A DNA stretch of 64,000 bases from Myxococcota bacterium (GTDB taxonomy: Bacteria > Myxococcota_A > SURF-8 > G963677705): NCBI GenBank assembly GCA_963677705.1, contig OY782497.1, forward strand, positions 4,152,627-4,216,626, given 5' to 3'. The translations under genes were made by a program, and so were the position numbers. This document shows, one piece after another, positions 4,380-54,605 of the stretch. The notes under the pieces were generated by a model, which had not been told where the DNA came from, did no database searches, and was given only the letters and a program-made list of their open reading frames with translations. Numbering within the stretch: the first letter of the stretch is position 1; every line of letters starts with the position of its first letter.

Positions 4380-4795
4380 CGGGCTTCCTTGGTCCAAAAC
4401 GGGTTGAACGGGCTGATGGCACGCGGATGCCTTGAGGCTGTTTTCCCGAATCCGATGCAGAGCAATCGACCGGGTGTGAAATCCGCATACATGGGCTTGC
4501 AGGAATTTTGTAGCGATGATGCTCAGGCTTGTCAAGCAAAGCTCTTGTCTTCCCAAGGTGAATGGCGTTGTCGTCCGGGGGATTTGGGTTGATGATCCTA
4601 CGCACCAAGGGGAAAGCCTGGAAGCTCGCAGTATTGCAATGGAAAGATCTGTTCTTGCAGTGTGGCGACAACGCGATAGCCGAGACGCCTTGGTTTTCCG
4701 CTAAAAGCGTTGACGAAACTTCCGTATAAAGCTAGATTTAGAACGCTCCCATTGAACTTGAAATGCTGAATAGTGATTTTGCTGGAGAGAAAACC

Positions 4796-29713: not shown

Positions 29714-31273
29714 ATGGCATTGCGCCTGGGACAAACCTTAAAATTACAACAAAGCCTGGTGATGACGCCTCAGCTTCAGCTTGCCATCAAGCTGCTGCAA
29801 ATGACGAGGCTGGAGTTGCAGGAAACCATCCAGACCGAGCTTTTGGAAAACCCCACGCTGGAATTGAGTGAAAGCGAGGCGGAAGCCCAAACCTCTACCG
29901 AGGATCTGCACAAAGACCCGGAGTTTCAAGGCAGCCTGGAAGACAGCGTTCCCGATGCCGCTCAACTCAAAAAGCTGGACTCCAACGAGCAGCTCAACCA
30001 GGATTTCAAAGAGGATCTTCACGAGAATCTGGACAGCGCGAAGAACGACCAGAACAGTGAGATGGACTGGGACGCCTACTTCGATTCCTACGATGACAGG
30101 CCAACGCCCAGCGCCCCCAGAGATCCCAACGCGGAAGAGGACGCGGTCAACCTGGAAGGCGTGCTGACCCAGGAACACTCGATGTATGATTTCCTGCATT
30201 GGCAGGTCAAACTCAGCAATTACACCGAGCAGGAACAGGCCATCGCCGAAGAGATCATCGGCAACATCAACGAAGACGGCTACCTCCGTATCGAAGATGA
30301 AAAGGGGCGCTTCCAACCCGTCTCGCTGGAAGACATGGCCGAGCGCCTGGAGGCTCCGCTCTCTGAGGTGGAACGCATCCACAAACGCATCATGCGCCTG
30401 GACCCCATCGGCATCGGTGCGCGGAATCTGCGTGAATGTCTGTTGATGCAGGCCCGCTTTTCTTCCAACCGCAGCAGCCTGGTGGCGCGGATTCTGGAAC
30501 ACCACTGGGATCTGGTGGAGAAACGGGACATCGCCAAAATCGCCAAGGTGTTGAAGATCAGCAAAGACGAGGTGATTGAAGCCTTCAAGGTGATGACCAC
30601 CTACGATCCCAAGCCCGGCCTGGGCCACAGTTCGGAACATACGGAATACGTCACACCGGATATCTACATCACCAAAGTCGGTGACGATTACCATATCACC
30701 TTGAATGATGACGGAATGCCCAAGCTGAAAATCAGCAACTATTACAAGCAGGCGCTGCGCAACAAGAAAGGGCCCAACGAGGCACGGGAGTATATCAAAG
30801 ACAAGCTGCGCGGAGCGAGTTGGTTGATTAAAAGCATTCAGCAGCGCCAGCGGACCATCTACAAGGTGGCCGATTCCATCGTCAAACAGCAACGGGATTT
30901 CCTGGATTACGGTGTAGACCACTTGAAGCCGATGGTTCTGCGGGACATTGCCGAGGACATCGGGATGCACGAATGCACGGTCAGTCGTGTAACCACCAAC
31001 AAGTACATCCATACGCCCCAGGGAATTTTCGAGCTGAAATACTTCTTCAACAGCGGGATCACCAACAGCGAAGGCACGGACATCGCTTCGGAAACCATCA
31101 AGAACAAGATCCGCCAGATCGTCAGCCAGGAAAACCCCAAGAAACCCTTCTCTGACCAGAAACTGGTGACCATGCTCAAACAGGATGGTGTGGATGTCGC
31201 CCGGCGGACCGTAGCCAAATATAGAGATATGCTGGGGATTCTTTCTTCTTCCAAGCGAAAGAAAGCCTTCTGA
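29714..31273 (+). CDS. rpoN: RNA polymerase sigma-54 factor
   Basis: N-terminal LKLQQSLVMTPQLQLAIKLLQMTRLEL activator-interacting region and a C-terminal RpoN box RRTVAKYRDMLGI. Confidence 0.9.
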   Translation: MALRLGQTLKLQQSLVMTPQLQLAIKLLQMTRLELQETIQTELLENPTLELSESEAEAQTSTEDLHKDPEFQGSLEDSVPDAAQLKKLDSNEQLNQDFKEDLHENLDSAKNDQNSEMDWDAYFDSYDDRPTPSAPRDPNAEEDAVNLEGVLTQEHSMYDFLHWQVKLSNYTEQEQAIAEEIIGNINEDGYLRIEDEKGRFQPVSLEDMAERLEAPLSEVERIHKRIMRLDPIGIGARNLRECLLMQARFSSNRSSLVARILEHHWDLVEKRDIAKIAKVLKISKDEVIEAFKVMTTYDPKPGLGHSSEHTEYVTPDIYITKVGDDYHITLNDDGMPKLKISNYYKQALRNKKGPNEAREYIKDKLRGASWLIKSIQQRQRTIYKVADSIVKQQRDFLDYGVDHLKPMVLRDIAEDIGMHECTVSRVTTNKYIHTPQGIFELKYFFNSGITNSEGTDIASETIKNKIRQIVSQENPKKPFSDQKLVTMLKQDGVDVARRTVAKYRDMLGILSSSKRKKAF

Positions 31274-39951: not shown

Positions 39952-40596
39952 ATGAGTTGCCACAATTTCCTGTTTATACCTCTGATGCTACTACTCTGCC
40001 TAGGTCAGGTCTCGTGTTTTGAGTTCCCTAAAAATACCGAGGGTCAAGAAGGTGGACGTTGTACAGATGACGGAAAATGCGATCCTGGTCTGTCTTGCTG
40101 TGTAAATCATAGATGTCGAACAACTTGTGTGTGGGAAGATGGAACCACGGGATTGATGTGGATGAACCCTCCTCCATCGGAGCAAATGAATTGGACCCAG
40201 GCCGAAGAGTTTTGCGAAACCTGGAATTACCAAGGTATGAATGGTTGGCGTTTGCCACGAATGGATGAGTTATGTAGCCTTCTTGATGGATGCCCAGAGC
40301 TTGGAGAAGAAGAGAAATGTGGATTCGGTGCGGATTATTCACGGATGACACTCATGGATGCGATAAATTGCTTTTATAGTAGCCAATGTGAATCATCTTC
40401 AGAGGCTTGCTATGTATCGGAAGATTTGGTTGAGGCATCAAGCGTATCACCCGGATCACCAAATTATTGGTCGTCTGATACATACATAGAAGATGATAAC
40501 GAAATGTGGAAAGTTAGCTATACTCATCAAGGATCTGCGATCATCGCAAGAATAGAGACAGCCACAGGTTATGTCCGCTGTGTTCGTGATAATTGA
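39952..40596 (+). CDS. Secreted Cys-rich DUF1566 (Lcl C-terminal, C-type-lectin-like) domain protein
   Basis: Signal peptide. GLMWMNPPP...MNWTQAEEFCETWNYQGMNGWRLPRMDEL...YWSSDTY...RCVRDN is characteristic of PF07603. Confidence 0.6.
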   Translation: MSCHNFLFIPLMLLLCLGQVSCFEFPKNTEGQEGGRCTDDGKCDPGLSCCVNHRCRTTCVWEDGTTGLMWMNPPPSEQMNWTQAEEFCETWNYQGMNGWRLPRMDELCSLLDGCPELGEEEKCGFGADYSRMTLMDAINCFYSSQCESSSEACYVSEDLVEASSVSPGSPNYWSSDTYIEDDNEMWKVSYTHQGSAIIARIETATGYVRCVRDN

Positions 40597-40599
40597 TGG

Positions 40600-40735
40600 T
40601 AGGAAGGCCCGAAGAGGAGCCTTCAACAATCGTAGTCGGGCAAATTCCTTGCCCGACACGTCTTGCACACAAGCCCTTGCCCCTCACTGGGATGCCTTTC
40701 GGTAGCCTGTCTCTTGTGAGAGGGAGAAGGGCTTC
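40600..40735. repeat. Repeat cluster (ccttcaacaatcgtagtcgggcaaattccttgcccgac plus cccctcactgggatgcctttcggtagcctgtctcttgtgagagggag)
   Basis: The first half matches 39690-39740. The second half matches 3308-3355. Confidence 0.5.
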
Positions 40736-40895
40736 CGAATAGCCGATTAAGGCTCATCCTTTCCTTCTTTTCTGACGATCCATGCTTGCCAGGTTTCCAC
40801 CGTGGAGTATACTCGGCCCACGGTGGCGTTGTGGTTTGTTGGTCTGTTGAATTCCTGTTGTCCGCTACCACGGTAGGTTTTTTGCCTACGAAGGA

Positions 40896-41813
40896 TTGGA
40901 TCTGATGAAAAAGTACGTCGATATCCTCTGGCCTCTTCTGGCAATCAGCGCAATGATCGCTGTCGCCCTGGGTTTATCTCACGCGGAATTTCTCCCTGAA
41001 ACCGGACGGCATTTGTCCTCCTTGATGGTACCCAACCTTCTGGTCGGTGCCGCCGCCGGGGTCTTGGCCGGCCTGTTGGGGATTGGCGGAGGGCTGGTCA
41101 TTGTTCCGATGTTGGTGTTCACCCTGGAACCGCAGGGGATCTCTAAAGAACTGGTGATGCACCTGGCGCTTGGAACCAGCATGGCCAGCATCATTTTCAC
41201 CTCCGTGTCAAGTTCCCTGGCCCATCATCATCGGGACGCCGTTCGTTGGGATGTGGTCAAGCGGATCAGTGTCGGCATTCTATTGGGTAGCTTTCTGGGC
41301 ACCTTCATCGCCGGAGTGATGAGCATGGAGATGCTGAAGATTATCTTCGTCATCTTCGTGTATTACGTGGCGGTACAGATGTTGATGGATTTCAAACCCA
41401 AGCCGACGAGGGAGCTTCCCTGCGGCGGAGGTCTGTTCTGCTCCGGCGGGGTGATCGGCGCGGTATCCAGTCTGGTGGGGATCGGCGGCGGGACGCTTTC
41501 CGTCCCGTTTATGGTGTTCTGCAACCTGCCCATTCATACCGCCATCGGAACGGCCTCGGCCATTGGGTTTCCCATTGCCGTTGCGGGAACCATCGGTTAT
41601 GTGGCCAACGGCCTGACCGTGGAAAGCCTTCCTCCCTTCTGCCTGGGCTACATCTACCTTCCGGCGTTGTTCGGTATTATCTGCGCCAGCGTGTTGACTG
41701 CTCCCTTGGGCGCCCGTCTTTCCCACAGCCTTCCCGTTCCACAACTGAAGAAGGTCTTTGCCGTGTTGCTGATCCTTGTCGGCTCGCGGATGATTTACGG
41801 TCTGATTGCCTGA
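40896..41813 (+). CDS. TauE/SafE-family (DUF81) sulfite/anion exporter
   Basis: Two internal repeats with GLLGIGGGLVIVPMLVF and LVGIGGGTLSVPFMVF. Confidence 0.75.
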   Translation: MDLMKKYVDILWPLLAISAMIAVALGLSHAEFLPETGRHLSSLMVPNLLVGAAAGVLAGLLGIGGGLVIVPMLVFTLEPQGISKELVMHLALGTSMASIIFTSVSSSLAHHHRDAVRWDVVKRISVGILLGSFLGTFIAGVMSMEMLKIIFVIFVYYVAVQMLMDFKPKPTRELPCGGGLFCSGGVIGAVSSLVGIGGGTLSVPFMVFCNLPIHTAIGTASAIGFPIAVAGTIGYVANGLTVESLPPFCLGYIYLPALFGIICASVLTAPLGARLSHSLPVPQLKKVFAVLLILVGSRMIYGLIA

Positions 41814-42053
41814 ATCGGCTCGAACCGATTCCTCTTCGATGAATCACTCGCCAGGAGTATCTGCGGGGTATACCCTGCCGTAGGGCGGTGGTTCGAGGGC
41901 ATCTCGACTTCCTGCCCGATGGGGGGCTTTCATGAGAATGGATTACCCCTGAGATCATCAAAACCTCTTCTTCACAATTTCCTAGCTCTATGCTAATGGG
42001 TGTGTTTCGTAGGCAAACAATGTGGTTGAGTGCGTTCATGCTGGAGAAACACA

Positions 42054-43094
42054 ATGAAAACGCGACGTAGTCTTGGTTTGGTGCTGCTGGCTTGTCTGGT
42101 CTTTACGCTGGCTCTTTCGGCTTGTTCGGAAGATTCAGACGATGATTCCACCGTGGATGGAGACGACTCCCAGTCTGACGGGGATGATCCCAGTGACGAT
42201 GACGATGACGAGGAGGATGGCGACGAAGAGCAAGCCGATCCGGACGCCCTTGAACTGACCGTGATGACGTACAATATTCTCTGCTACTTCTGCGACACGG
42301 TGAACTACGATCCTTGGGAAGATCGCATCGGCTACCACCGTGAAACCTTTGTGCGGCACAATCCGGACCTGATCGGCATTCAGGAACTGTTTCAGTTGGA
42401 GGATCTGGACCAACTGCTGGAACCCAACCCGGAGTATGAAGCGATTTATTACGTGGATGATGGGGAGGGGATTTTTGATACCTATACCGACGCTGCGATT
42501 TTCTACAAGAAAGACCGCTTTGACGTGGTGGAAACCGGGTTTTACTGGCTGAGCGACGATCCGGATACGCCCTTCACCGGCTTCAGTTCCGAGGAAGAGC
42601 AGGGCAGCCGGAAAGCCTCTGCCTTCTGGCGTATGGTTGCCTGGGCCGTGTTTACCGACCGCGCAAGCGGAAAAGACTTCTATTTTTCAACGACCCACTT
42701 TGACAACAACACCCCGCATCAAGAGCAGAGCGCTCCCATTGCCTTGTCTTACATTCAACCCTATGCGGAACGGATGCCCGTGGTCTTCGTGGGGGATTAC
42801 AACTCCAAGCCGGATACCATCGCCTACGGCTTGTTAACCGAAGGGGTGGAGGGCTCGGACTTCTCTCTGGTGAACAGCTTCGATCTCGCCGAGCAATGGT
42901 CCGTGTCCTCCAATCTGGAACCCACGCCGGAATATGACCCGAACGATCGCATTGACCATATCTTCCTGCAAGGCCCATCCGATTGGACGGTTTCCTCCTG
43001 GGTGGTGGATATGACCAGCTACGGAGAGTCAGGCCGTTATGCCTCGGACCATTTCGCAATGATTGCTACGCTGCGCTACGCCTTGGATGAGTGA
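42054..43094 (+). CDS. Lipoprotein with poly-Asp/Ser linker and endonuclease/exonuclease/phosphatase (EEP) domain
   Basis: Lipobox LALSAC followed by SEDSDDDSTVDGDDSQSDGDDPSDDDDDEEDGDEE. EEP motifs LTVMTYNI ... GIQE ... SDHFAMIATL. Confidence 0.7.
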   Translation: MKTRRSLGLVLLACLVFTLALSACSEDSDDDSTVDGDDSQSDGDDPSDDDDDEEDGDEEQADPDALELTVMTYNILCYFCDTVNYDPWEDRIGYHRETFVRHNPDLIGIQELFQLEDLDQLLEPNPEYEAIYYVDDGEGIFDTYTDAAIFYKKDRFDVVETGFYWLSDDPDTPFTGFSSEEEQGSRKASAFWRMVAWAVFTDRASGKDFYFSTTHFDNNTPHQEQSAPIALSYIQPYAERMPVVFVGDYNSKPDTIAYGLLTEGVEGSDFSLVNSFDLAEQWSVSSNLEPTPEYDPNDRIDHIFLQGPSDWTVSSWVVDMTSYGESGRYASDHFAMIATLRYALDE

Positions 43095-43126
43095 ATCTCT
43101 GTCTGAATCCTGATTCCGAAATCATG

Positions 43127-43167
43127 GCCCGAATGGAAAGAAACGCCTTTCCATCGGGCTTTTTTGC
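43127..43167 (+). terminator. Rho-independent terminator after the EEP lipoprotein gene
   Basis: gcccgaatggaaag-aaacg-cctttccatcgggc followed by tttttt. Confidence 0.55.
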
Positions 43168-43291
43168 ATCATGCGGGATGTTGCCATTCCAGGCTTGAGG
43201 TGGTATCCTCCGCAGGATTTTTCGCGCCCTGTTTTCCTGGAGTGGAGTCAGGGATGTTCATGCTTCTTTAGGTAACGTTCGAGGTCTGCCG

Positions 43292-45916
43292 ATGAAGTCA
43301 CCGCGCCTGTGGCAATCTTTCACGGATTGGTATACCAAGCTTTCCTTCCGTCATCCTTTTCTGATTCTGGGTATCTTTCTACTCTTGACTGTTGCCGGGG
43401 TGTTTATCTCCAAAGGGCATATCAAGATCGTGACCAACCTGGCCGCTCTGCTTCCCGAAGGAACGCCCAGTGTTCTGGCCTTGGATGAAAGCAAGAAACG
43501 CATCGGTTCCACGGATTTCTTCACCATCGCCATCAAGAGCGAAACCAACAGCGCCCATGCCATTGCCAAGATGCAGGATCTGCTGAAAGAGCGCATCGAA
43601 AAGGAATGGGATGATGCTGACTGGGTGCAGGTGGGCCGGGATACCTCCTTCTTCCATAGCCATGCCTTGTATTACCTGCCGGTCAACGAACTGCTCGACC
43701 TTCGCGACACCCTGCAAATGGAGTTGGTCAAGGCCAGCGCCAAGAAGGGTTTCACCGTCAACCTGATGGGCGATGACGACGACGACGATGACGATGATGG
43801 CATTGACAAATGGTATGATGAAGAACTTCCCCGGCGCTTGGGCCTTCCGCCCCAGGTGCAAAAGGAGTTCAACAGCTTCTTTGCCGCACGAGAGAAAAAA
43901 GAAGGGGATACGGACGGTCTCCCCCGTGAGTTGAGCCACCGCCTGATCGGTCCCAAAGGTGATGTCGGTGTGATTTTCGTACAATTGGCCAAGCCCAGCA
44001 CAGACTTGGAATACGCGGAAAAAGTATTGCTTCGCGGGGAAAAGCTGATTGCGGAGATCAACCCCAAGAGCATTGACCCAAGCCTCATTGCCCAGGTTGT
44101 CGGTGCTTACCGCAGCTTTATGGAAGTGGATGCCGTGTCCAAAGACGGCACCGTGGCCACCAGCATCAGCCTGGTCTTGATCCTCTTCATGATGTTCATT
44201 TTCTTCCGTAGCTTCCGCACCATCGTGGTGGTCGTTGTTCCGCTGCTTACTGCCGCTGCGGTGACGATGGCGGTCACGGCGGGGGTTTACGGGCGCCTGA
44301 CGGTGCTGACCGTGTTTATTCTGGCGCTCCTGGCGGGGATGGGTATTGACTACGGGATTCACCTGTTCGGGCGCGTGATTCAGGATTTCCGTGGTGGACG
44401 CAGCGTGGAAGACAGTGTGCATCAAAGCTTGCTGCATACGGGCCGCGCCTTGTTCGCCGCAGCGGGAACCACCATCGCCAGCTTCCTGACCTTGCAGGCC
44501 GGACACTTCCAAGGCTTCAAGGAGTTCGGCATCGTCGCCAGCTACGGCCTGTTCATTGCCGTTCTGGCCAGTTTCCTGGGTATTCCTCCTCTGGTGGCGA
44601 TGATGGAACGCATCCGCCCCCTGACGCGCTCGGAGAAGGAACTGAAACAGAGCGAAAAAGATCCGGACAAATTCTTGGGTACCTCAGCCCGCAAGCTTGC
44701 CTTCTATGGATTTGTCATTTCTGCCGTGGTTACGGTGGGGCTTTCCGTGTTCATGCCCCGCGCCATGTTTGAATATGATTTCCGTAACCTGCGCGCACCC
44801 AGCACCGGAGCGACCATCGGCTACGGTCGCGCCATCGGTAAAGACGCCAGCAGCACCCCGGCGGTGATGTTGGCCAAAGATATGAAGCAGGTGGAGGCCG
44901 CCCACGAATTTCTGCGCAACAAATTGAGCGTGGAAAAAGACCCGATGCTCAAGAGCTTCATCACCTATTACACCTTTGTTCCCCAGGCCAAGAAGCAGGA
45001 AACGCGGCAGATGGTCATCGGTGAGATCGGTGACATTGTCAAAAAAGAAGCCATGCGCAAACTGACCGGCGAGAAAAAACGCATGATTGACGAGTTGTTA
45101 CTCATGGTGGATGCCAAACCCTTCACGGAAAAAGACCTGCCGGATTGGGCCTTGAAGGTGGTCACCGAGCGTGACGGCACGGTCGGTCGCGTGGGCCATA
45201 TGTACGGTCATGTCGAAAAATGGAATGCCAACAGCGTGCGGGATTATCAAGACCGCTTCGGCTATCTGTTCTTCAAGAATGACGGCACGGTTTCTCACGG
45301 AACCGACGAGGAAGCCAAATTGAGCCTACAGGGCAAAGATACGGGCAAAGGCACCTGGCTGCCCATCGCCTCCAGCAACTTCATTTTGTCTGATGTGGTC
45401 AAGATGGTGCAGGAAGATGGTGAGATCCTGGCCGTATTCGTCTCTCTGGTGTTGTTGGTGATTCTGCTCCTGTATTCCCGCAGTGTGGTGGGAATGATGC
45501 TGCTGATGGCCGTAACCGGCTCCATCGTTATCTGGACGGTGGGTATCATGGGCCTGTTTGATATTCGTATCGGCCTGTACAACCTGATTACCATTCCCGT
45601 CATCCTGGGTGTGGGTATTGATGGCGCGATTCACATGTTCCACCGCTACCTGGAGTTGGGACCGCAGCAGTTGGGTAAAGCGATGCGTACCACGGGCTTG
45701 TCGATCACGGCCTCGTCGTTTACCACCATTGCCGGTTTCTTCGGGCTGATCTTCGTGGCTCACAAGGGCTTGCGCACCATCGGCGTGCTGGCTTCCATCG
45801 GTATTCTGTTGGCCTGGATGGCCAGTGTGGTGCTGCTTCCCTGGTTGATGGCCCGTTTCGTGAAAACGGAGAACACCACGAAGTCAGAGACTGAGGTGGA
45901 AAAAGAAAACGCCTAG
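43292..45916 (+). CDS. MMPL/RND-superfamily exporter (COG1033-like, two SSD/MMPL halves) with a poly-Asp insertion in the first periplasmic domain
   Basis: 874 aa with 2 x 6 TM. LALLAGMGIDYGIH and ITIPVILGVGIDGAIH motifs typical of MMPL. DDDDDDDDDG at about 43780. Confidence 0.75.
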   Translation: MKSPRLWQSFTDWYTKLSFRHPFLILGIFLLLTVAGVFISKGHIKIVTNLAALLPEGTPSVLALDESKKRIGSTDFFTIAIKSETNSAHAIAKMQDLLKERIEKEWDDADWVQVGRDTSFFHSHALYYLPVNELLDLRDTLQMELVKASAKKGFTVNLMGDDDDDDDDDGIDKWYDEELPRRLGLPPQVQKEFNSFFAAREKKEGDTDGLPRELSHRLIGPKGDVGVIFVQLAKPSTDLEYAEKVLLRGEKLIAEINPKSIDPSLIAQVVGAYRSFMEVDAVSKDGTVATSISLVLILFMMFIFFRSFRTIVVVVVPLLTAAAVTMAVTAGVYGRLTVLTVFILALLAGMGIDYGIHLFGRVIQDFRGGRSVEDSVHQSLLHTGRALFAAAGTTIASFLTLQAGHFQGFKEFGIVASYGLFIAVLASFLGIPPLVAMMERIRPLTRSEKELKQSEKDPDKFLGTSARKLAFYGFVISAVVTVGLSVFMPRAMFEYDFRNLRAPSTGATIGYGRAIGKDASSTPAVMLAKDMKQVEAAHEFLRNKLSVEKDPMLKSFITYYTFVPQAKKQETRQMVIGEIGDIVKKEAMRKLTGEKKRMIDELLLMVDAKPFTEKDLPDWALKVVTERDGTVGRVGHMYGHVEKWNANSVRDYQDRFGYLFFKNDGTVSHGTDEEAKLSLQGKDTGKGTWLPIASSNFILSDVVKMVQEDGEILAVFVSLVLLVILLLYSRSVVGMMLLMAVTGSIVIWTVGIMGLFDIRIGLYNLITIPVILGVGIDGAIHMFHRYLELGPQQLGKAMRTTGLSITASSFTTIAGFFGLIFVAHKGLRTIGVLASIGILLAWMASVVLLPWLMARFVKTENTTKSETEVEKENA

Positions 45917-45961
45917 TCATGGCGCATCCGTGACAAGAAGACCGAGCGATCCGTAACGAAG

Positions 45962-45995
45962 ACCCCCGGCTTTTCCAGAAGGAGAAGCCGGGGTT
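45962..45995. terminator. Possible bidirectional terminator hairpin between convergent genes
   Basis: ccccggctt ... aagccgggg 9-bp stem. Weak T tract. Confidence 0.3.
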
Positions 45996-46030
45996 TGGCG
46001 TATGAGATCCTTGAAGATGGGTGTCAGAAA

Positions 46031-46666
46031 CTATTCTTCGGTGAAGGGAATCACACAGCTTGTGGTATCCAGGCAATCCATGAAGGAATCACAGGCGTCT
46101 TCGTTCAGGCAATCGGCAAGGTTGTTGAACCCGTCGGAGGTCATCATACCGCCCAAGCTCAAACAGAAGCCATCCATGTCACTTTCAAAGCCGGAGACAT
46201 CGGTGATGTCCTGGCACAATTCCAGACCTTTGCTGGCCAGATCGGCACAGGTGGCTTCCACATCGCTCCCCACCTGTGTGTTGGTCAGCACTTCCTGCAT
46301 ACAAGGAGCGACGATTTGCCCATCGGTGCAGACCTCGCCGCCCAGGCAATCTTGAAAGGCGTTGGCAAACTCATCGTTCCATTCCCAGGTCAGCAGGCGG
46401 CAACTCTCAACGCAGTTGTTGTCACCTTCGCAGGCTTCGATCACTTCGCAGGCTCCTTCGCAGATACCACTATAGTCCGAGGCCTCTTCGGTTTCACGGC
46501 TGGCACAGATCTGCTCGAAGCTCTGGTCGGTGTTGTTGTCATCGTCGTCATCGTCACCGTTGTCGTCACCGCCGCTACCATCATCATCGTCGCCACAACC
46601 ACTGACGAAAGCCACAGACAGACCCAGCAGAACAATCAGAATAAACAGACTCGGTTTGAATTTCAT
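46031..46666 (-). CDS. Cys-rich lipoprotein with poly-Asp linker (unknown function)
   Basis: Lipobox AFVSGC then GDDDDGSGGDDNGDDDDDDNN. About 20 Cys in the mature domain. Confidence 0.55.
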   Translation of the reverse strand: MKFKPSLFILIVLLGLSVAFVSGCGDDDDGSGGDDNGDDDDDDNNTDQSFEQICASRETEEASDYSGICEGACEVIEACEGDNNCVESCRLLTWEWNDEFANAFQDCLGGEVCTDGQIVAPCMQEVLTNTQVGSDVEATCADLASKGLELCQDITDVSGFESDMDGFCLSLGGMMTSDGFNNLADCLNEDACDSFMDCLDTTSCVIPFTEE

Positions 46667-47002
46667 CGCAACTCTCCTCCTTGACCAACAGCCGTTGGTC
46701 GTTTAATGGCCCAACATGGAATCCGTTTCCCCAAAAGGGTGGCGAATTTTACCACGTTTGTCGTGTTCTGGCAATTTCGTGCATGGTAAGATGGGGTGAT
46801 TCCCTGTTTGAGTTTCCCTGATACTGCGTGACCGTTTAGGCTGCATACCAGGTACTGGAAACGCGGGTGGCGGTCCTCCTCCGGTTGATGAATGGCGAGA
46901 AATTTGATATGAAAGGGTGGAGAGGCTAGGATTTCCTGTCCAACATGGAAAAGGGATGATACTTCCTCCGGTAAACACCGATCATACGACGATGAGGTAT
47001 GG

Positions 47003-48712
47003 ATGAGCAATGCACTGACTCTTGATCCTACGATCAGCCAAGGATGGGCAGCCTTGGCCTGTTCATCCATCTGCTCGTTTTCCTGCCCTTCCTGTCAGTA
47101 TCTTGGTGAAGGAGGGAAACATGCTCTTGAAGAAAACCTCTTTGCCATTCAGCATCTTGCCGAAAAAGGGTTCACGTCTTTGCTGCTGATGGGAGCCGAT
47201 CCGTTGAAGCTGCCTCATCTCTCAACACTGATTGATGAGGCTCGTCAGCTTGGATTCAATACGATCTGGGTTAGTGATTGCGGGTATGCTCTGGGTGATC
47301 CGGAGCGCCCGCTGGAAACTCTTGATCTTGATGGGGTTCTGTTGCTTTCGCGAGGGCTTTCCACCTCGAAAATCAATTTCTTCACAAAAAATGCTGCCGA
47401 TGAATCCTCCGTCATCAAGAGCCTTGCCCGTTTGAAACAAGCGGGGATCCCGTGGCACGGACTGGTGGAAATGGTACGTCCTGTCTTACCGGAGGTGCCG
47501 AAGATCCTGCAAACCTTTGCAGAGTATGGAGCCGCTGGCGTTTCGTTTCACATTCCGCAAATGGAACGCTTGGAGGCTTTTCAGATGGCGGTTCCGGTCC
47601 CGTTGGTTGTACGGGTTATCGAGAGACTTCGTCCGCAAATGGACTCGATGGGTTGGAAGAAAGAAGCGCATCCGGCCGTTCAGGCATGGACTCGTACCGT
47701 CACGCCGTCAACCTTGATGAAAGCCCAAGGATTGGAACCTGCGCAGCTTCGTGTCCTTATGACCGGTGAAGCGGAAGATTTTCTTGCAGTCAACCTGCTC
47801 CCACAACGTGAAGGAAAGGTCCGTGGGGAGATTTTGATGCGTATCCAGGGACGGTGCAACATGGCTTGCTCGTTTTGTTGGTTGTATCGCAAGGGAGGGC
47901 CGGTTCCCCGCAAGAAGATTCTGGATGTGGCCGAGGAGCAGCGGCGCGTGTTGAAGGAGCAGGGAGCCGAAGAGATCCATCTTGTGTTGACCGGTGGCGA
48001 GCCAACCCTGCATCCGGATCTTGTTTTTCTGATCGAGCAGTTCAAGACCTGGCCGGAAGCAACCATAGAAATTCAGAGCAACGGTTACAAATTGGCGGAA
48101 CCGGGACTGGCTCGTGCTCTCTGCCAAGCGGGGATGACATCGGCCCAGATTACCTTGCTAAGCCACGATGCCGCCATCTCCGATGGGCTTACGCACTGCA
48201 AAGGCGGATGGGAAAAGACCGTGGCAGGCATTGATGCTCTTTCCAAGGAGAACGTCACAGTGAACCTGAGCCTTGTGGTCAGTCGTGACAATATGAAAAC
48301 CGTTCCTGAGACCGTGGCGTTCATTGTCAAACGTTGGGGTCAGTTGAAAGAGCGCTTGTCCATCAACCTTTTGCTGGCAGTCCCAATGGGTCGGTTGCGC
48401 GACAAAGCGGTTCGTCTAATCTCTCCCTCGGTGGGAGAGGCGCGTCCCTACTTGGAAAAAGCCTTTATAGATGGGCGTTTACGGGGCCTTCATTTCGGGG
48501 CTTTTGACGTTCCTTGCGGCTTTCCACTGTGTGCTTATGGGAAGGCGGCAGTGGATCTTCCCCGGTCTCCTGGAGACGAAGCGATGAATCTTGAAGGCTT
48601 CGCGAAACCACCGGAAAAATGCGGCCATTGTTCCCTTGTCAATCATTGCCCCGGTTTGTTTGAGAGCCTTGCACAAGAATACGGCACAGAGGACTTGACT
48701 CCCATTCGCTGA
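47003..48712 (+). CDS. Tandem radical-SAM protein (degenerate N-terminal rSAM core plus canonical rSAM core) with a C-terminal SPASM domain
   Basis: First CxxxCxxC (CSFSCPSC) with LLLMGADPL. Second CNMACSFCW with LVLTGGEPTLHPD. C-terminal Cys cluster CGFPLCAYG ... EKCGHCSLVNHCPG. Confidence 0.7.
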   Translation: MSNALTLDPTISQGWAALACSSICSFSCPSCQYLGEGGKHALEENLFAIQHLAEKGFTSLLLMGADPLKLPHLSTLIDEARQLGFNTIWVSDCGYALGDPERPLETLDLDGVLLLSRGLSTSKINFFTKNAADESSVIKSLARLKQAGIPWHGLVEMVRPVLPEVPKILQTFAEYGAAGVSFHIPQMERLEAFQMAVPVPLVVRVIERLRPQMDSMGWKKEAHPAVQAWTRTVTPSTLMKAQGLEPAQLRVLMTGEAEDFLAVNLLPQREGKVRGEILMRIQGRCNMACSFCWLYRKGGPVPRKKILDVAEEQRRVLKEQGAEEIHLVLTGGEPTLHPDLVFLIEQFKTWPEATIEIQSNGYKLAEPGLARALCQAGMTSAQITLLSHDAAISDGLTHCKGGWEKTVAGIDALSKENVTVNLSLVVSRDNMKTVPETVAFIVKRWGQLKERLSINLLLAVPMGRLRDKAVRLISPSVGEARPYLEKAFIDGRLRGLHFGAFDVPCGFPLCAYGKAAVDLPRSPGDEAMNLEGFAKPPEKCGHCSLVNHCPGLFESLAQEYGTEDLTPIR

Positions 48713-48809
48713 AAAATCCAATCCTAAGTCTGCCATCGAAACAAGAAAACCCAAGCCCCTGCGTTTATTGACGCGCAGAGGCTTGGGTTTGAATGGATAG
48801 CTCTTACTC

Positions 48810-51539
48810 TCAGTCTTTCTTGGCTTGCAGTATCTCCAGGGCAATGGTCAGGGCTTTCGAGGCTTTCACGCGCATTTCTTCGTCATGCTTGATGCGATGG
48901 AAGGCTTTCACCACACGCTCTTCATTCTGGGCGTTGGTGCCGTGCAGGGCTTCCAGTTCCTCTTCCAACTCCGCCAGACGTTGTTCGTATTGCTGGCCGA
49001 TCTCTTCAAGCTGCTGTTGTAGGTCTTCGCGGTCTTTCTCTAAAACCTCCAGGTCTTTTTCCCACTGCGCCACGGTGGTCTTGGCCGCTTGCAGATCCTC
49101 TTTGGCTTTGACCTTTTCATTGTTGGCCTGTTGCAGGTCTGCCTGGGTCGTCGCGAGGGTTTCCTCACGCTGTTTGAGGGTTTCTTCCTGTTGACGAAGC
49201 TTCTCGTTCAATCCGGCCAGTTGCGCAGCCTGATCGTCCAAGAGTTTGTTGGCGTCACTGAGATCCTTGCTTTGTTTCTGGTGGGTGCTTTCCAACTCAG
49301 TCAACTTGCTTTGAGCTTCCGTGGCCTGAGTTTTGGCCAGGTCGCTTTCGTCACGCAAGGTGCCCAGTTCCTCTTTGGAGGCTTGAAGTAGGGTGGTTTT
49401 GGTTTCCAGATCCTGCTTCGTCTGCTCAAGCTGAGCGGTCAGTTCTTCGATGTTTTCATCTTTTTCATCCAACTCAGCATCTTTCAGGGCCAACTTGCTG
49501 TTGGTTTCGTTCAGTTGAGCTTCTTTGTCGGCGAGCGCTTGCTGTATGTTGGCCGCTTCATGGTTTCGCGTCTGGATGCTCTGTTCCAACTCGGTAATCT
49601 GGGCGCGCAAAGCCTCTACCGTCTGGGCCTGCTCGCCGGATTGGTTCTGCGCCGTCGTCAGTTGTTGGCGGGTCTGCTCGTGGTTACGACGTTCCTCATC
49701 CAAGGCGGCTTCCAGCTCGCTTCGTTCGGCTTGTTGGGCATCAAGAGTGCTGTGAAGTTCTTCCAGTTCGCTGTCTTTTTGTTGAATCTGGGCGTTGAGG
49801 GTCGAGAGTTCCTTTTCACGATCCCCCAGGCTTTTCGCCTGTTCCTGGCTTTCATTGAGCTTTTGCGTGTAGCGCTTGCTGAGCTTCTCGAAGCTCAGTT
49901 TTTTATCTTCCAGGGTTTTGCGCAGTTTTTCCAGTTCGCCTTCCAACTCGTTCTCACGCAGGGTCAGGGCTTGCTGTTTTTCCTCTACGCGACGACGGGC
50001 GGCCTGCTCCTGTTCGTCCAACTCCTGTTGCAGGGCGCTAACCTGGTTTTCCAGTTCGGCCAGGGTGCTGTCTTTCTGGCCCAACTGCGACTGCAAGCCT
50101 TCAAGAGTCTGTTGGTGTTGTTCTTGGGCTTGGGTCTTGGCGTTTTCAACAACGGTCAATTGGTTCTTCAAGTCCTCCATGCGTTGGGCTAAGGCATCCA
50201 TCTCAGCCTGCTTCCGTCGGAGAAGTTCGTCTTTTTCGTTGAGCGCTTCACTCCATTCCCCTTGTTGTCGTTCCTGGTCGCTTTGCTGGCGCTGCTGGGA
50301 GTTCTGCAACTCCTCGTTTTGCTGACGCAGGGTGCTTGCCTGGTGCTGGGTCTGCTGAAGCTCCTCGCTTGTTTTGTTGAGTTCCTGTTCCAGACGGGTG
50401 AACCGTTCTTCAAGCGAGGCTAGGTTTTGATCGGTTTCATTCTTCTGGGCCGTCAGTTCAGAAAGCTTGGATTGCAACTCATTGTGATTCTGGGTGAGGG
50501 TCTGAAGCTCCTCGCGGGTGCGAGCCAACTCATCTTCCCTGCCGGCCAGTTCCTGCTTGAGTTGAAGCCCCTGGGCAGAGAGTGTCTGGCGTTCATCGGC
50601 CAGTTTCTGCAATTGCGCTTCCACCTCGCCGATGCGTGCTGCGTCCCGTTCAGCCTGTTTTTGCAGGGTGGAACGCTCTTTTTCCACCACATCCAGGCGG
50701 GCTTTGGTTTCGTTCAGTTCGTCGGTCAGCCTGGCCTTGGCCTGGGAAAGCTCTTCTTTCTCCCGTTCGCGTTTGAACAGCAGTTGTTTCATCCGCTGGG
50801 TTTCCGCGTTGCCGCCCCCGGAAGAAGGCACGGGAATCTCGGATTGCCGCAGGCCGGATTGCTCGGCGGGAGGCACCTGGTATTCTTCACTCAATTCCCC
50901 CAGAACGTCGTCCATTGCGTCATCCATGTTGGGGAATCCCAGGTCGTCGTCATCATCGAGGGGAGAAGCCTGGGTTGAGCTTGGCGTCCCGGCCAACAAA
51001 CTGTCGATGTCATCCATCGGTGGCGCGGCGACCGTCTGGCTTGGGATCTCGTCGGCAAAGTCTTCCGTTGGGATGGGGTACTCGTCCGTGGAAGGTTCGG
51101 CCAGCATGTCATCCAACATATCCACTTCGCTGGTGGGAACCGCAGGAGGATGAGCATCGGCAGCCCAACCCAGCATGGAGGCCAATTCCTGGTAGAGTTC
51201 ATCCGGTTGGAAAGGCTTGTGGTAATAGAGGTCCGCGTGTTTTCTGAGCTTCTGGTGCTTCTGGAAGGTTTCCGGTGGCACGTTGGCTCCGACGATCACG
51301 CTGCTTGCCTGGCCTAAGACCGGGTCGTGCTTGATCGCTTTGAACAAGGCGAAGCCGCTGGTATCGGCCAGTTGCACGTCAATGACAAAGGCATCGGGCA
51401 GCCATTGCCTTGCAGCACTTAAGGCAGCCTCGGCGTTGTCGACAAAATGGATTTCACAGCCGCGCTCATTGGTCAGAAACTCTGCCAGGGTTTGCGCGAA
51501 GGAAATGTCACCATCAGCGATGAGGATTTTCTGAGACAT
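48810..51539 (-). CDS. FrzS/AglZ-like protein: N-terminal receiver domain plus a coiled-coil of about 750 aa
   Basis: Receiver ILIADGDISFAQTL...DAFVIDVQLADTSGF...KP. The remainder is heptad-rich (QQLEE..., ELEEL...), Gln/Glu/Leu-biased. Confidence 0.7.
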   Translation of the reverse strand: MSQKILIADGDISFAQTLAEFLTNERGCEIHFVDNAEAALSAARQWLPDAFVIDVQLADTSGFALFKAIKHDPVLGQASSVIVGANVPPETFQKHQKLRKHADLYYHKPFQPDELYQELASMLGWAADAHPPAVPTSEVDMLDDMLAEPSTDEYPIPTEDFADEIPSQTVAAPPMDDIDSLLAGTPSSTQASPLDDDDDLGFPNMDDAMDDVLGELSEEYQVPPAEQSGLRQSEIPVPSSGGGNAETQRMKQLLFKREREKEELSQAKARLTDELNETKARLDVVEKERSTLQKQAERDAARIGEVEAQLQKLADERQTLSAQGLQLKQELAGREDELARTREELQTLTQNHNELQSKLSELTAQKNETDQNLASLEERFTRLEQELNKTSEELQQTQHQASTLRQQNEELQNSQQRQQSDQERQQGEWSEALNEKDELLRRKQAEMDALAQRMEDLKNQLTVVENAKTQAQEQHQQTLEGLQSQLGQKDSTLAELENQVSALQQELDEQEQAARRRVEEKQQALTLRENELEGELEKLRKTLEDKKLSFEKLSKRYTQKLNESQEQAKSLGDREKELSTLNAQIQQKDSELEELHSTLDAQQAERSELEAALDEERRNHEQTRQQLTTAQNQSGEQAQTVEALRAQITELEQSIQTRNHEAANIQQALADKEAQLNETNSKLALKDAELDEKDENIEELTAQLEQTKQDLETKTTLLQASKEELGTLRDESDLAKTQATEAQSKLTELESTHQKQSKDLSDANKLLDDQAAQLAGLNEKLRQQEETLKQREETLATTQADLQQANNEKVKAKEDLQAAKTTVAQWEKDLEVLEKDREDLQQQLEEIGQQYEQRLAELEEELEALHGTNAQNEERVVKAFHRIKHDEEMRVKASKALTIALEILQAKKD

Positions 51540-51644
51540 ACAACTAACCTCGGTCACGGGCCCGTGGGCGTTCGAAAACGGGGTGGCTTGAATCCGTCTG
51601 ATTGAACAACAGCTACAGCAAACAGGACAGCTTTCAGCGTTACG

Positions 51645-52190
51645 CTACTTCTTCTTCACCATATCTTTCACCGCTCCCATGATTTTACTCATGGAACCGA
51701 AACCCTTGCGGGCCAGGAAACTCATGACGTCAGGTCCGCCTAAAAGCAGGATCTTGAATACGCCCATCCGGGTCAGGCCGATTACGCCGACATGCAGGTC
51801 TACCTTCAGAGTGACATCGGGATCGTCACTGACCATCAGGCTGAAAAACTTCACGCCGAATTCCCCAATGTTCGCGGATTGAAATCCGGCGAGTGCGCCG
51901 ACGGCCTTGGGGCTGATGGTAAAGGTGATCTCCGGATCTTTGGGCGGAGGACTATCTCGTAAAAACGTCTGTTTTTTCTCACGAATCACATGGTAAGGCG
52001 TGCTTTCCTCACCGGTAATCAACATCTGGAAAACGGTTCCGTTTTTCAAGGGACCGGCGGCGCGGAGAGAAATTGGGCGAACCTCCAAAAACTCTTGCAA
52101 TTGCTCAAAGGCTGGAGTCGTCAAGGTGGTTTCCTTTCCTTGGTTTCCTCGTTGATACGTGGCCGCGAAGCGCCACAACATCTGTTCCAT
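51645..52190 (-). CDS. Hypothetical protein adjacent to the FrzS-like gene
   Basis: 181-aa ORF with protein-like composition. No motif recognised. Confidence 0.4.
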   Translation of the reverse strand: MEQMLWRFAATYQRGNQGKETTLTTPAFEQLQEFLEVRPISLRAAGPLKNGTVFQMLITGEESTPYHVIREKKQTFLRDSPPPKDPEITFTISPKAVGALAGFQSANIGEFGVKFFSLMVSDDPDVTLKVDLHVGVIGLTRMGVFKILLLGGPDVMSFLARKGFGSMSKIMGAVKDMVKKK

Positions 52191-52362
52191 TCTAGCGACC
52201 TCTTTTCATAGCACAAGCGGCTATTGGGAGCAACTTCTTAAACCATTCCCGTATGTTAGATATTGAATGGATTCTTTCGCATCATTCACGGGTTGCCTTT
52301 TCTCTTCGCCTGGGGTAGAGAAAACAGGCGAGATGAAATGCTCTAAACCTGTGAGGTTACCC

Positions 52363-53394
52363 ATGAAAACGGCATTCGGTGTTATCGTTCTTATCAGCTT
52401 GATTGCCTTTCTGGCCATTTCAACGAACGTCTTTCACTCTGGCCCGCGAATCGAAACCCTGGCTCCGCAACCGGTGCGACCGGGCGAAGCCCTGACCCTT
52501 ACCGGCAGCGGCCTGGCTCCCCAAGGTGGTCCGGTGATGGTTCAATTCAACGGGCAGGCGGTTTCGGCCACGGAAGGCGGTGAGCGCTACGTCGTGGTGC
52601 AGGCTCCTCAAGGATTGCAGGCAGGCATGGTTACGGTGACGGTTGGCGCAGAGACCAGCAACCCGCTGTTTTTCGAGGTTGCCGGAGCGGGAATGGGCAA
52701 GGGTATGGCCGGGATGCCCGCCGGACATCCGATGGTTACCGGGAAACAGGTTGTGGAACCGGGCCAGGGAGGCATGATGGGCCAAGGTACGGAAGGTGGT
52801 TCCACCGCCGGAGCGCATCAGTTTTTCAGTGGGGACGAGATCCGCCCCGCGCCGGATTTTACCTTGACCGATCTTCACGGCAAAAAGGTTTCTCTGTCTG
52901 ACTTCAAAGGGAAGATCGTGCTGCTTCATTTCTGGGCGACCTGGTGCCCGCCCTGCCTGGAGGAAGTGCCCAGTCTGGAGCGCTTGACCCAACGCACGAA
53001 GGACAGCCTGAAGGACTTTGCGGTTCTGGCGGTGAGTGTGGATAAGAACACCGATGACATCAAAACCAAGCTTCCCAAGCTCAACTTGGATGTCTATTCG
53101 GACCCGGAAGGCGAGCTGGCCAAAACCTACGGCACGGAAAAATTCCCGGAAACGTATATCCTGAACAAAGAAGGTAAACTGGTCGCCAAGTTCATCGGCT
53201 CGCGTAACTGGGATAACCCCTTGTTCGAGCGCCTGTTCGGTCTATTGCTGAAGCAGGGGCATCTGAGCATGGACGGCATGATGGGTGGCGGAATGCCCAA
53301 GTCCCAGGAAACTGCCGCGGAGAAGGAACAACCCGCCGAGCAGGCTTCGCCCACCGAGCAACCCTCGAAGGCTGGGGAGGGAGACCATGAGTAA
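52363..53394 (+). CDS. Membrane-anchored TlpA/ResA-family thiol-disulfide oxidoreductase with an IPT/TIG-like domain
   Basis: N-terminal TM helix. Ig-like region PVRPGEALTLTGSGL...MVTVTV. Thioredoxin fold KIVLLHFWATWCPPC. Confidence 0.7.
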   Translation: MKTAFGVIVLISLIAFLAISTNVFHSGPRIETLAPQPVRPGEALTLTGSGLAPQGGPVMVQFNGQAVSATEGGERYVVVQAPQGLQAGMVTVTVGAETSNPLFFEVAGAGMGKGMAGMPAGHPMVTGKQVVEPGQGGMMGQGTEGGSTAGAHQFFSGDEIRPAPDFTLTDLHGKKVSLSDFKGKIVLLHFWATWCPPCLEEVPSLERLTQRTKDSLKDFAVLAVSVDKNTDDIKTKLPKLNLDVYSDPEGELAKTYGTEKFPETYILNKEGKLVAKFIGSRNWDNPLFERLFGLLLKQGHLSMDGMMGGGMPKSQETAAEKEQPAEQASPTEQPSKAGEGDHE

Positions 53395-53734
53395 GCCGGA
53401 TTGGGTGACGGAATTCCCTTTTCCCGTCACGGTATGTGATCAAAAGGGGACCGTGGTTCAAATGAATCGGGCCAGCCGGGAGTTGTTTGCCAAGTCCGGC
53501 GGAGAAAAGCTTGTGGGAACGGACCTGCGCGACTGTCATCCGGGCAAGAGCCGTGAGCGCCTGGAAAGCCTGCTTACCGATCCGCGAAGCAATATCTACT
53601 CGATTGTGAAAAACGGACAAACGAAACTGATTGTGCAAAGCCCCTGGTACGAAGATGGAACCTTTGCCGGTTTGGTGGAGCTTTCCTTCCCTTTGCCGGA
53701 TGTCATGCAGGTGATGGATAGGGATAAGGGCTGA
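53387..53734 (+). CDS. Small PAS-like domain protein (start overlaps the TlpA stop)
   Basis: 115-aa ORF starting MSKPDWVTEFPFPVTVCDQKGTVVQMNRASRELF, with a PAS-like beginning. Weak support. Confidence 0.35.
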   Translation: MSKPDWVTEFPFPVTVCDQKGTVVQMNRASRELFAKSGGEKLVGTDLRDCHPGKSRERLESLLTDPRSNIYSIVKNGQTKLIVQSPWYEDGTFAGLVELSFPLPDVMQVMDRDKG

Positions 53735-53843
53735 GTCTCATTCCGGGTTTCGGAGGAAACGTCCAATCCACTTGTACGGAGCCAGGGTGAGGGAAGCTGG
53801 GGGTTGTCAGTCGTCTCAAGCAGAGCTTGTCAATTACCCAGAG

Positions 53844-54605
53844 TTAGGCGTCGTTGACGATCCCGATGAAGGAAAGCATCCGTCCGCAGAGGGTCTGCTC
53901 CCGCCGCCAGCTATCATAGCGCGTGGCATTGGCCGGGTCCAGGGTGCAAGCACCAACGGTCAGGATGCGTGTCAGACCCAGGCGCTCCAGGTGCAGGCTG
54001 TTGGCACGGATCAAGTCCACGTGGGCTTTCGGTCCCAGATCCCGCCTTACGGCAGGGGATAGATCCGCCGTGACAAAGGCACGGGCCACGTCCTCACCCA
54101 CCTCGTAGCGTTCCACACGGGCGCACGGCCCCAACAAAGCCGTCAGGTTTTCCGGTTTGCATCCCAGTTGAGTCATCAGCGCAACACCTTCGCGGACGAT
54201 GCCGTCTACCGTACCACGCCATCCGGCATGGATCGCCGCCACCACGGGCCGGGTTTCATCCATCAACAATACAGGAAGGCAATCCGCCGTTTTAACCGCC
54301 ACGGCCATGCCCGGCTGTGGGCAGACCAGGCCATCGGCCACCGTTCCAGGCAGGCTTTGCGCGTCGTGAGGGGCATCGGCCAACAAAACCTTGGTGGTGT
54401 GGCGTTGAGTCACGGTAAGCAGGCAGGTCAAACCGGGATGGGTTGTGAGGGCTTGCTGATGGGCATAGGCCACGCTTTGTTGCTTGGTTCGTTCCAGTTC
54501 CTCCACCGACAGTCCGGCGTAGCTCAAGGGTGCCTTGGTGCCAAAGCCGTAACGAATCCACGAGGGCGGCTGATACTCTGTTGCCGTTTCAAAAAAGCTT
54601 GCCAT
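53844..54605 (-). CDS. pgeF: Peptidoglycan editing factor PgeF / YfiH (laccase-domain, DUF152)
   Basis: ADGLV...AVKTADCLPVLL...AAIHAGWRGT motifs. Start trimmed to MASFFE at 54605. Confidence 0.75.
   Translation of the reverse strand: MASFFETATEYQPPSWIRYGFGTKAPLSYAGLSVEELERTKQQSVAYAHQQALTTHPGLTCLLTVTQRHTTKVLLADAPHDAQSLPGTVADGLVCPQPGMAVAVKTADCLPVLLMDETRPVVAAIHAGWRGTVDGIVREGVALMTQLGCKPENLTALLGPCARVERYEVGEDVARAFVTADLSPAVRRDLGPKAHVDLIRANSLHLERLGLTRILTVGACTLDPANATRYDSWRREQTLCGRMLSFIGIVNDA

Follow-up and report, generated by a model that had tools for sequence, protein, structure and literature searches.

Radical S-adenosylmethionine (SAM) enzymes catalyze reactions that are among the hardest in biology, and for most of their families no function is known. 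Maturases with a SPASM domain carry a seven-cysteine motif, CX9-15GX4C...CX2CX5CX3C...C, which binds two auxiliary clusters. Two CX3CX2C radical SAM domains occur in a single polypeptide in FbiC (fused CofG/CofH) and in MJ0619 of methanopterin biosynthesis, which belong to radical SAM subfamilies unrelated to the protein described here and lack an HxsC-type cysteine tail. In the HXS antiphage system, two separate radical SAM enzymes, HxsB and HxsC, act jointly on a protein, HxsC has the small protein HxsD as a binding partner, and active-site substitutions in HxsB or in HxsC abolish HxsA cleavage and defence (PMC13128918). The gene examined here lies at positions 47003-48712 of a 64,000 nucleotide stretch of contig OY782497.1 (the window). 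It encodes one protein, P0001, in which two radical SAM modules are fused head to tail. P0001 belongs, as a divergent member, to a large, uncharacterised tandem family that is distantly homologous to the HXS maturases, themselves characterised only recently.

Two radical SAM modules in one protein

Features of the gene, in window coordinates:

47003..48712 (+): P0001, tandem two-module radical SAM protein, 569 aa; complete open reading frame (ORF) with translation
47030..47692 (+): N-terminal module with radical SAM fold, residues ~10-230, (beta/alpha)6 core; cluster cysteines kept, own cysteine tail missing, motifs altered
47060-47062 (+): C20, clade-specific, just upstream of CX3CX2C
47072..47095 (+): CX3CX2C of the N-module (C24, C28, C31), with Ser at position 30 for the usual aromatic
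47192..47203 (+): GADP of the N-module, degenerate counterpart of GGEP, from family counts
47273-47281 (+): SDC (residues 91-93) where the family has ETN, from family counts
47693..47812 (+): inter-module linker, residues ~231-270, site of the N-module cysteine tail in most members, from alignment gaps
47813..48412 (+): canonical C-terminal radical SAM core, residues ~271-470, from Pfam and the family alignment
47855-47878 (+): CNMACSFC (C285/C289/C292), within the C-terminal core
47993-48004 (+): GGEP, within the C-terminal core, with N360 further on
48485..48709 (+): C-terminal cysteine tail, residues 495-569, C505-x4-C510 ... C540-x2-C543-x5-C549-PG

The ORF is the sole long one at its coordinates, begins with ATG and is preceded by a GAGG site ~6 nt 5′ of the start, and the NCBI genome record holds a protein identical to P0001. 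All motifs quoted in the original prediction are present, namely CSFSCPSC (C24, C28, C31), LLLMGADPL, CNMACSFC (C285, C289, C292), LVLTGGEPTLHPD, CGFPLC (C505, C510) and CGHCSLVNHCPG (C540, C543, C549). Its central claim, a single polypeptide with two radical SAM modules, is borne out by the motifs, the internal duplication and the fold models. The SPASM label did not hold, the proposed modification and export module found no support, and the rarity of a duplicated core had been overstated, as detailed below.

The C-terminal module matches PF04055 with 82.3 bits against a cutoff of 29.5 (residues 281-441), and the N-terminal module reaches 16.8 bits, below that cutoff (E = 0.0078, residues 21-154). 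The sub-threshold N-terminal half is a true radical SAM module, since it arose with the other half by internal duplication, is part of a confident full-length model, and has C24, C28, C31, G64 and P67 invariant among members of the same layout that are 20-24% identical to P0001. BLASTP aligns one half with the other (E = 3e-5), placing CX3CX2C on CX3CX2C and GADP on GGEP. The AlphaFold2 model, based on an alignment of 98 sequences, has a full-length predicted local distance difference test score (pLDDT) of 90.5, dropping below 50 at residues 254-258 in the linker, and a predicted template modelling score of 0.71. In this model the N-terminal half is a regular beta/alpha repeat that forms a partial (beta/alpha)6 barrel with CX3CX2C after strand beta1, and the best fold matches are radical SAM enzymes, both for the whole protein and for the N-terminal half by itself. 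The alternative raised at the outset, that this half might not have a radical SAM fold, is thus answered alike by alignment, model and conservation: it has one.

A word-indexed search returned P0002 (573 aa) as the sole close relative, at 51% identity, along with a few tandem proteins that are more remote. By sequence comparison, P0001 and P0002 form a divergent two-member branch of the tandem family.

On balance, the best explanation overall is that P0001 is a two-module radical SAM enzyme, in which the sequence and the model point to a catalytic C-module with one auxiliary cluster and an accessory, cluster-binding N-module. The C-module would be the working catalytic unit, its [4Fe-4S] cluster cleaving SAM to a 5′-deoxyadenosyl radical that would abstract a hydrogen atom from the substrate. 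The C-terminal tail would hold one auxiliary iron-sulfur (Fe-S) cluster, in a twitch-like rather than a SPASM arrangement. The N-module would still bind an Fe-S cluster after losing its own cysteine tail, and would most likely be no second active site but a partner that does not cleave SAM, with a role in electron transfer or the docking of substrate.

The C-terminal module and its cysteine tail

C285, C289, C292, G331, G332, E333, P334 and N360 are invariant in 98/98 sequences of the alignment, and the C-module of P0001 retains all of the family-invariant residues as well as F291 and the tail cysteines. In the tail, which has the spacing CX4C, a 29-residue gap and CX2CX5C, C510 and C549 are found in 98/98 sequences, C540 and C543 in 97/98, and C505 in 71/98. 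At residues 384-386, the S-L-H of the family (S in 92/98, H in 91/98) reads T-L-L in P0001 and P0002, which suggests that the active site or the substrate of this branch may differ from that of the main family.

The C-terminal region had been described as SPASM-type, but neither PF13186 nor TIGR04085 matches the whole protein or its C-terminal half (E≤1) or the isolated tail (E≤10). The four universal cysteines do not follow the SPASM pattern, and the position where the seven-cysteine motif places its next cysteine is F553 in P0001 and R in 81/98 family members. SPASM maturases (anSME, PqqE, SuiB and CteA) have 7-8 cysteines in the domain, compared with 4-5 in the tail of P0001. As four conserved cysteines fit one cluster, the tail is probably a single auxiliary Fe-S cluster site of the HxsC-like or twitch-like kind. 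This agrees with the top Foldseek matches, SkfB (6efn, E = 2.7e-9), BlsE (7vob) and MoaA (1tv7), and with the best NCBIfam match, HxsC, which runs through the tail. Like P0001, the twitch-type enzymes SkfB, MoaA, BlsE and BtrN combine a radical SAM core with a short C-terminal extension containing few cysteines. However, they are 12-19% identical to P0001 and have a single radical SAM core, and P0001 has a cysteine pattern of its own, PxC...CX2CX5CxG.

Divergence of the N-terminal module

The N-terminal core had been predicted to be the degenerate one, and both the sub-threshold Pfam score and the drift of its motifs in the 98-sequence alignment agree. Only 10 of 19 family-conserved positions are kept in the N-terminal half of P0001, compared with 38 of 51 in the C-terminal half. 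Position 30, the aromatic of CX3CXPhiC, is F or Y in 74/98 sequences and S in P0001. In the GGE motif, position 65 is G in 82/98 and A in P0001 (G65→A/T across the P0001/P0002 branch), and position 66 is E in 85/98 and D in P0001, with E66 kept in P0002. In the ETN motif, T is found at position 92 in 84/98 sequences and N at position 93 in 71/98, where P0001 has D and C. The columns of the N-module cysteine tail, C...CxxCx5CxG, are conserved in the family and are gaps in P0001 and P0002. The branch has also gained C20 and C93 at or near the N-module motifs; C20 is exclusive to P0001 and P0002, with position 20 never Cys elsewhere in the alignment, and C93 is shared with one other sequence only.

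The aromatic residue of CX3CXPhiC and the GGE motif contact SAM in radical SAM enzymes, and we take the changed N-module positions to correspond to such SAM-contact motifs. Because the tail is lost and F30→S, GGE→GAD and ETN→SDC fall at these conserved positions, the N-module would not be expected to cleave SAM. From the sequence and the model, it is fairly probable that this module has an accessory role, having lost the canonical handling of SAM while still binding a cluster. It is maintained under constraint rather than decaying, since the N-terminal halves of P0001 and P0002 are still 46% identical (54% for the C-terminal halves).

Alternatively, both modules may be active, with two SAM-cleaving sites performing sequential or paired radical steps on one substrate. 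CX3CX2C, G64 and P67 of the N-module are strictly conserved, D66 is conservative for an E66 that P0002 keeps, and the N-terminal half is well conserved between the two branch members. Among tandem-size family members, 66/93 have two full sets of motifs, and two active sites seem likely for these two-thirds with two complete modules. In HXS, the HxsB and HxsC active sites are each required for HxsA cleavage and defence (PMC13128918). For the branch itself, however, an active N-module is the less probable state, though a possibility of some weight: F30→S, G65→A/T, T92→D and N93→C are combined in one module, the auxiliary-cluster tail of that module is lost, and 17/93 members have no cluster motif in the N-module, so the family tolerates an inactive one.

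Several points weigh against the reading of P0001 as one catalytic module with an accessory partner. Some active radical SAM enzymes have GGE variants or a non-aromatic residue in CX3CXPhiC, so that the N-module may cleave SAM after all. All statements about cluster binding, about SAM cleavage and about how many clusters there are have been read from the primary and predicted structures. A protein or peptide is weakly favoured as the substrate, by analogy, because the nearest characterised relatives, the Hxs enzymes, mature a protein; this guess draws on homology that is distant (83 bits, the cutoff being 268), and the window is without an HxsA-, HxsB- or HxsD-like gene. Enzymes acting on small molecules or lipids (MoaA, BlsE, GDGT-MAS) score as structural neighbours as well as the peptide maturases do. 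Finally, both branch members adjoin a gene for a Cys-rich acidic lipoprotein; two non-homologous cases are a lead that we cannot fully dismiss.

Relationship to HXS and other described systems

The best NCBIfam match of P0001 is HxsC (TIGR03977), which aligns residues 281-555, including the cysteine tail, with positions 31-291 of the 292 in the model. The score is 82.9 bits against a cutoff of 267.9, and HxsC4 (NF038332) scores 68.5 against 500. The two radical SAM enzymes of HXS are separate proteins, whereas the modules of P0001 are fused and both HxsC-like. No ORF with (HxS)n repeats was found in the window or in family loci L001 (the locus of P0002), L082, L085, L086 and L088. There is no HxsA, HxsB or HxsD in the window and no HxS-repeat protein, HxsB or HxsD in the P0002 locus, and searching the window with the L001 proteins found no second radical SAM protein. 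Because HxsA, HxsB and HxsD are missing from the window and all scores lie far below cutoff, P0001 is not assigned to HXS, which serves as an analogy only, that of paired radical SAM modules acting on a protein.

Single-module distant relatives of P0001 do lie in loci with (His-Gly-Ser)n repeat proteins that score as genuine Hxs systems:

L044 16701-18155: HxsB, 409 bits against a cutoff of 370
L044 18171-18533: HxsA4, 82 bits against a cutoff of 55
L063 17244-17678: HxsD, 55 bits against a cutoff of 50

Against HxsC, the HxsC-like paralogs in these loci reach 76-95 bits, and the C-module of P0001 falls in that range. The (His-Gly-Ser)n repeats were seen in L018 (4717-4842), L042 (3415-3477), L044 (18171-18533), L056 (5973-6134), L060 (19434-19577), L067 (731-838), L073 (1-42), L074 (7227-7583) and L076 (17786-17929). 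Loci of this kind often hold several HxsC-like radical SAM paralogs, and their hosts are Elusimicrobia, Candidate Phyla Radiation (CPR) bacteria and Myxococcota. Groundwater Elusimicrobia are reported to have large suites of radical SAM genes adjoining a novel nitrogenase paralog (bioRxiv 10.1101/765248). NifH-like and NifD/K-like ORFs were seen in L041, L064 and L079.

The original prediction held that P0001 could not be matched to a described family, and this stands: no NCBIfam model comes near its own cutoff. The 25 best NCBIfam matches extend down to 35 bits and include neither anSME (TIGR03942, cutoff 349 bits) nor HpnH. In addition, the PF00884 protein of the window lacks a formylglycine (FGly)-type sulfatase signature, and the MMPL protein encoded near the gene is not a true HpnN by score. 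FbiC and MJ0619 are likewise absent from the 25 best matches. A precedent for a radical SAM fold that is kept after decay of the catalytic motif is the 'pseudo-SAM/SPASM' family TIGR04347; tandem members match it weakly (62-92 bits), far below the cutoff of 525, and the N-module of P0001 differs in retaining its three cluster cysteines. Among the PADLOC defence-system models, only generic, viperin-level radical SAM similarity was found.

Distribution and forms of the tandem family

A profile search with HMMER against 1.84 billion representatives, with hits counted as representatives of 50%-identity clusters, returned 53,448 matches at E≤0.001 and 1,484 cluster representatives at E≤1e-30. The top matches are mostly ~600 aa and match the profile end to end. 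A duplicated core had been considered unusual, but the tandem layout is the rule among at least 1,484 cluster representatives (E≤1e-30), and what had looked like an oddity belongs to a family of well over a thousand sequence clusters. The family is defined by a length of ~540-680 aa, two homologous radical SAM modules, and a C-module with CX3CX2C, GGEP and the tail PxC...CX2CX5CxG. P0001 has all of these features, aligns end to end with P0003, with P0004 and with 97 family sequences, and is returned by the profile together with hundreds of tandem proteins. In typical members, each half weakly matches HxsC and HxsC4.

Species-representative genomes were scanned and 80 loci kept, the genome containing the window not being among them. 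The best loci are overwhelmingly from Myxococcota (Polyangiaceae, Myxococcales, Chondromyces apiculatus, Nannocystis and Archangium), with remoter relatives in Elusimicrobia, CPR bacteria and DPANN archaea. The only public name for these proteins is the generic 'MoaA/NifB/PqqE/SkfB family radical SAM enzyme'. Full-text searches on tandem or double radical SAM phrases found no paper about the tandem family; the phrase 'two radical SAM domains' led only to PMC11917521, on F420 precursor production, and to work on a fungal pathogen that is unrelated.

The N-module occurs in the following states among tandem-size representatives:

66/93: two CX3CX2C and two cysteine tails, a clean duplication of the radical SAM-plus-tail unit
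17/93: CX3CX2C lost from the N-module, both tails kept
8/93: two CX3CX2C, C-terminal tail only, the layout of P0001
2/93: other combinations

Across the family, the first module is thus found complete, cluster-only or cluster-less, a series that amounts to a natural experiment in which a catalytic radical SAM domain turns into an accessory domain. With this series and its distant Hxs link, the family is a worthwhile target, more so than the single gene. The gene is itself a reasonable target for biochemistry, but guesses at its substrate should not be guided by its genomic neighbourhood, which is described next.

Gene neighbourhood

The radical SAM gene appears to be transcribed alone, because its neighbours are divergent on one side (46031-46666, -) and convergent on the other (48810-51557, -), and its product appears to be cytoplasmic. 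The 336 bp upstream spacer is common to this gene and the divergent lipoprotein gene, and contains sigma-70-like matches facing both ways:

46904..46932 (+): sigma-70-like promoter match TTGATA-17-TAGGAT; consensus scan, pattern match only
46774 to 46746 (-): second sigma-70-like match, facing the lipoprotein gene; consensus scan, pattern match only

At the P0002 locus, the corresponding spacer is only ~105 bp. No Rfam element was found in 40000-54000 (E≤1).

The neighbours are as originally described. The divergent gene predicts a lipoprotein of 211 aa with a lipobox, a poly-Asp linker and 17 Cys, and beyond it is a gene for an MMPL/HAE3 RND protein (43292-45916) that scores 189.5 bits against HpnN (TIGR03480, cutoff 751.85) and 114.9 against NF052374 (cutoff 1100). 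Further neighbours encode a TauE protein, a lipoprotein with Exo_endo_phos and a response regulator that continues into a long coiled coil. The P0002 locus is different, with cinA and recA on one side and smr and a ribosomal-protein operon on the other; it has no MMPL gene, and nothing there other than P0002 matches the window proteins. P0002 is followed by a gene for a Cys-rich acidic lipoprotein (L001 12022-13143).

A lipid or hydrophobic small molecule could be the substrate, with the product handled by the MMPL/HpnN-like transporter, on the pattern of Tes/GDGT-MAS and of HpnH with HpnN. We regard this as unlikely. A tblastn search of the family loci with the window MMPL protein found it within 10 kb of the radical SAM gene only in L080 and L082, two other independent loci of ~85 (L083 and L084 are copies of L082), which is roughly the level of chance, and it is absent at the P0002 locus. 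The MMPL and radical SAM genes are separated by the opposite-strand lipoprotein gene and so do not form one operon. There is no SCP2-like gene in the window, the Tes model scores 54 bits against a cutoff of 450, and similarity to GDGT-MAS is no better than to viperin or NifB.

The original prediction instead raised the possibility that a SPASM-type maturase acts on the adjacent Cys-rich lipoprotein, or on a small peptide, by crosslinking or some other modification, with MMPL/RND involvement in export. In its favour, the lipoprotein and radical SAM genes share a divergent promoter region, P0002 is also followed by a Cys-rich acidic lipoprotein gene, albeit a different one, and radical SAM maturation of a protein that is later exported has a precedent in HXS (PMC13128918). 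However, the absence of a SPASM match, described above, applies here also. The window lipoprotein is an ORFan, as a search of 5.8 billion proteins returned the query alone, and it is unrelated to the L001 lipoprotein (pairwise E = 1). Acidic-linker lipoproteins are common in the window (3 in 64 kb), the other two being at 42030-43094 (Exo_endo_phos) and 56080-58518 (812 aa, no Pfam). Lipobox ORFs within 1.5 kb of tandem radical SAM genes are not enriched in 39 loci (11 observed, 8.6 expected, P = 0.25). Neither 46667-47002 nor 48713-48809, the intervals proposed for a search for precursor genes, contains a plausible small precursor ORF, the short ORFs there looking random. With an ortholog neighbourhood that differs, and neither MMPL nor lipoprotein genes enriched, a modification and export module of this kind is very unlikely, and most likely the lipoprotein and MMPL genes are neighbours and nothing more. 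It should be added that longest-ORF gene calls are unreliable in 70%-GC myxobacterial loci, and neighbour families taken from them are leads only.

A further proposal combines the gained cysteines with the lipoproteins. The N-module may have turned into a fully Cys-ligated Fe-S partner, with C20 or C93 on the iron that would otherwise bind SAM, and would feed electrons or present the substrate to the C-terminal catalytic module of a fused enzyme maturing Cys-rich lipoproteins before export. We consider this highly improbable. If true, it would be a new type of radical SAM-dependent protein maturation, unrelated to the Hxs, anSME and ribosomally made, post-translationally modified peptide systems. 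The anSME enzymes provide another precedent for radical SAM maturation of a protein that is later exported, which bears equally on the original prediction.

Other family loci

The contexts of other tandem members vary, and the tandem family is functionally heterogeneous, so that the substrate of P0001 is not readable from homology. A cassette of one or two genes for small SCP2-like proteins followed by two or three tandem radical SAM genes (529-560 aa) was seen in three independent metagenome loci, and proteins with the motif 'LGYPxCCxDA ... PCxxDC' (DUF483 22 bits, cutoff 25) recur beside tandem radical SAM genes in clusters with multiple radical SAM genes:

L088 4600-10310 (L089 is from the same contig): SCP2-like/tandem radical SAM cassette
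L091 155-3778: SCP2-like/tandem radical SAM cassette
L092 4176-8239: SCP2-like/tandem radical SAM cassette
L085 10550-11545 (-): 'LGYPxCCxDA ... PCxxDC' protein
L003 13736-15430: 'LGYPxCCxDA ... PCxxDC' protein
L007 8038-9828: 'LGYPxCCxDA ... PCxxDC' protein

The SCP2-like proteins match PF02036 (E = 4.5e-5), share 53% identity between L088 and L091, and are fused as a 254 aa protein in L092. In L088, the cassette is flanked by a U32 peptidase gene upstream and by 3HCDH and ECH genes downstream. The arrangement looks like an undescribed system, and hints at a hydrophobic substrate. L085 is a cluster of several radical SAM genes that includes a B12-radical SAM gene, an epimerase-radical SAM fusion, an FG-GAP/ASPIC protein and the DUF483-like gene.

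Other genes in the window

The convergent gene (48810-51557, -) predicts a 915 aa protein with a response-regulator receiver, an acidic linker and a coiled coil of ~650 aa that matches SMC, Rad50 and crescentin rod models, and resembles the FrzS-type proteins of myxobacteria. A TlpA/ResA-like thiol-disulfide oxidoreductase of 375 aa with an N-terminal TIG/IPT domain (52267-53394, +) and a TauE/SafE-family membrane protein of 305 aa (40896-41813, +) are both encoded <6 kb from the radical SAM gene, and no link of either to it was found.

The product of 37241-39619 (+) is 792 aa, with a multi-transmembrane N-terminal half, a MopE-type metal-binding motif and a PF00884 domain. The sulfatase site that is converted to FGly is C/SxPxR. 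This protein reads NTPQA at that site and is multi-transmembrane, of the LtaS/EptA type; it is probably a transferase and not a sulfatase, and a link between anSME and a sulfatase was rejected. A 607 aa protein with an FGE-sulfatase domain is encoded at 4763-6586.

Placed through its sigma-54 protein, the host belongs to a sparsely sampled lineage in or near Myxococcota, with which the acidic-linker lipoproteins and the receiver/coiled-coil protein are in keeping. Those window proteins that were looked up and are on record fall in singleton or two-member 90%-identity clusters, all from one NCBI genome. The sigma-54 (RpoN) protein encoded at 29714-31273 (+) shares 84% identity with a single ENA metagenome protein and no more than 57% with any other, and its best named matches are from Myxococcales, Polyangia, Haliangium and Kofleriaceae.

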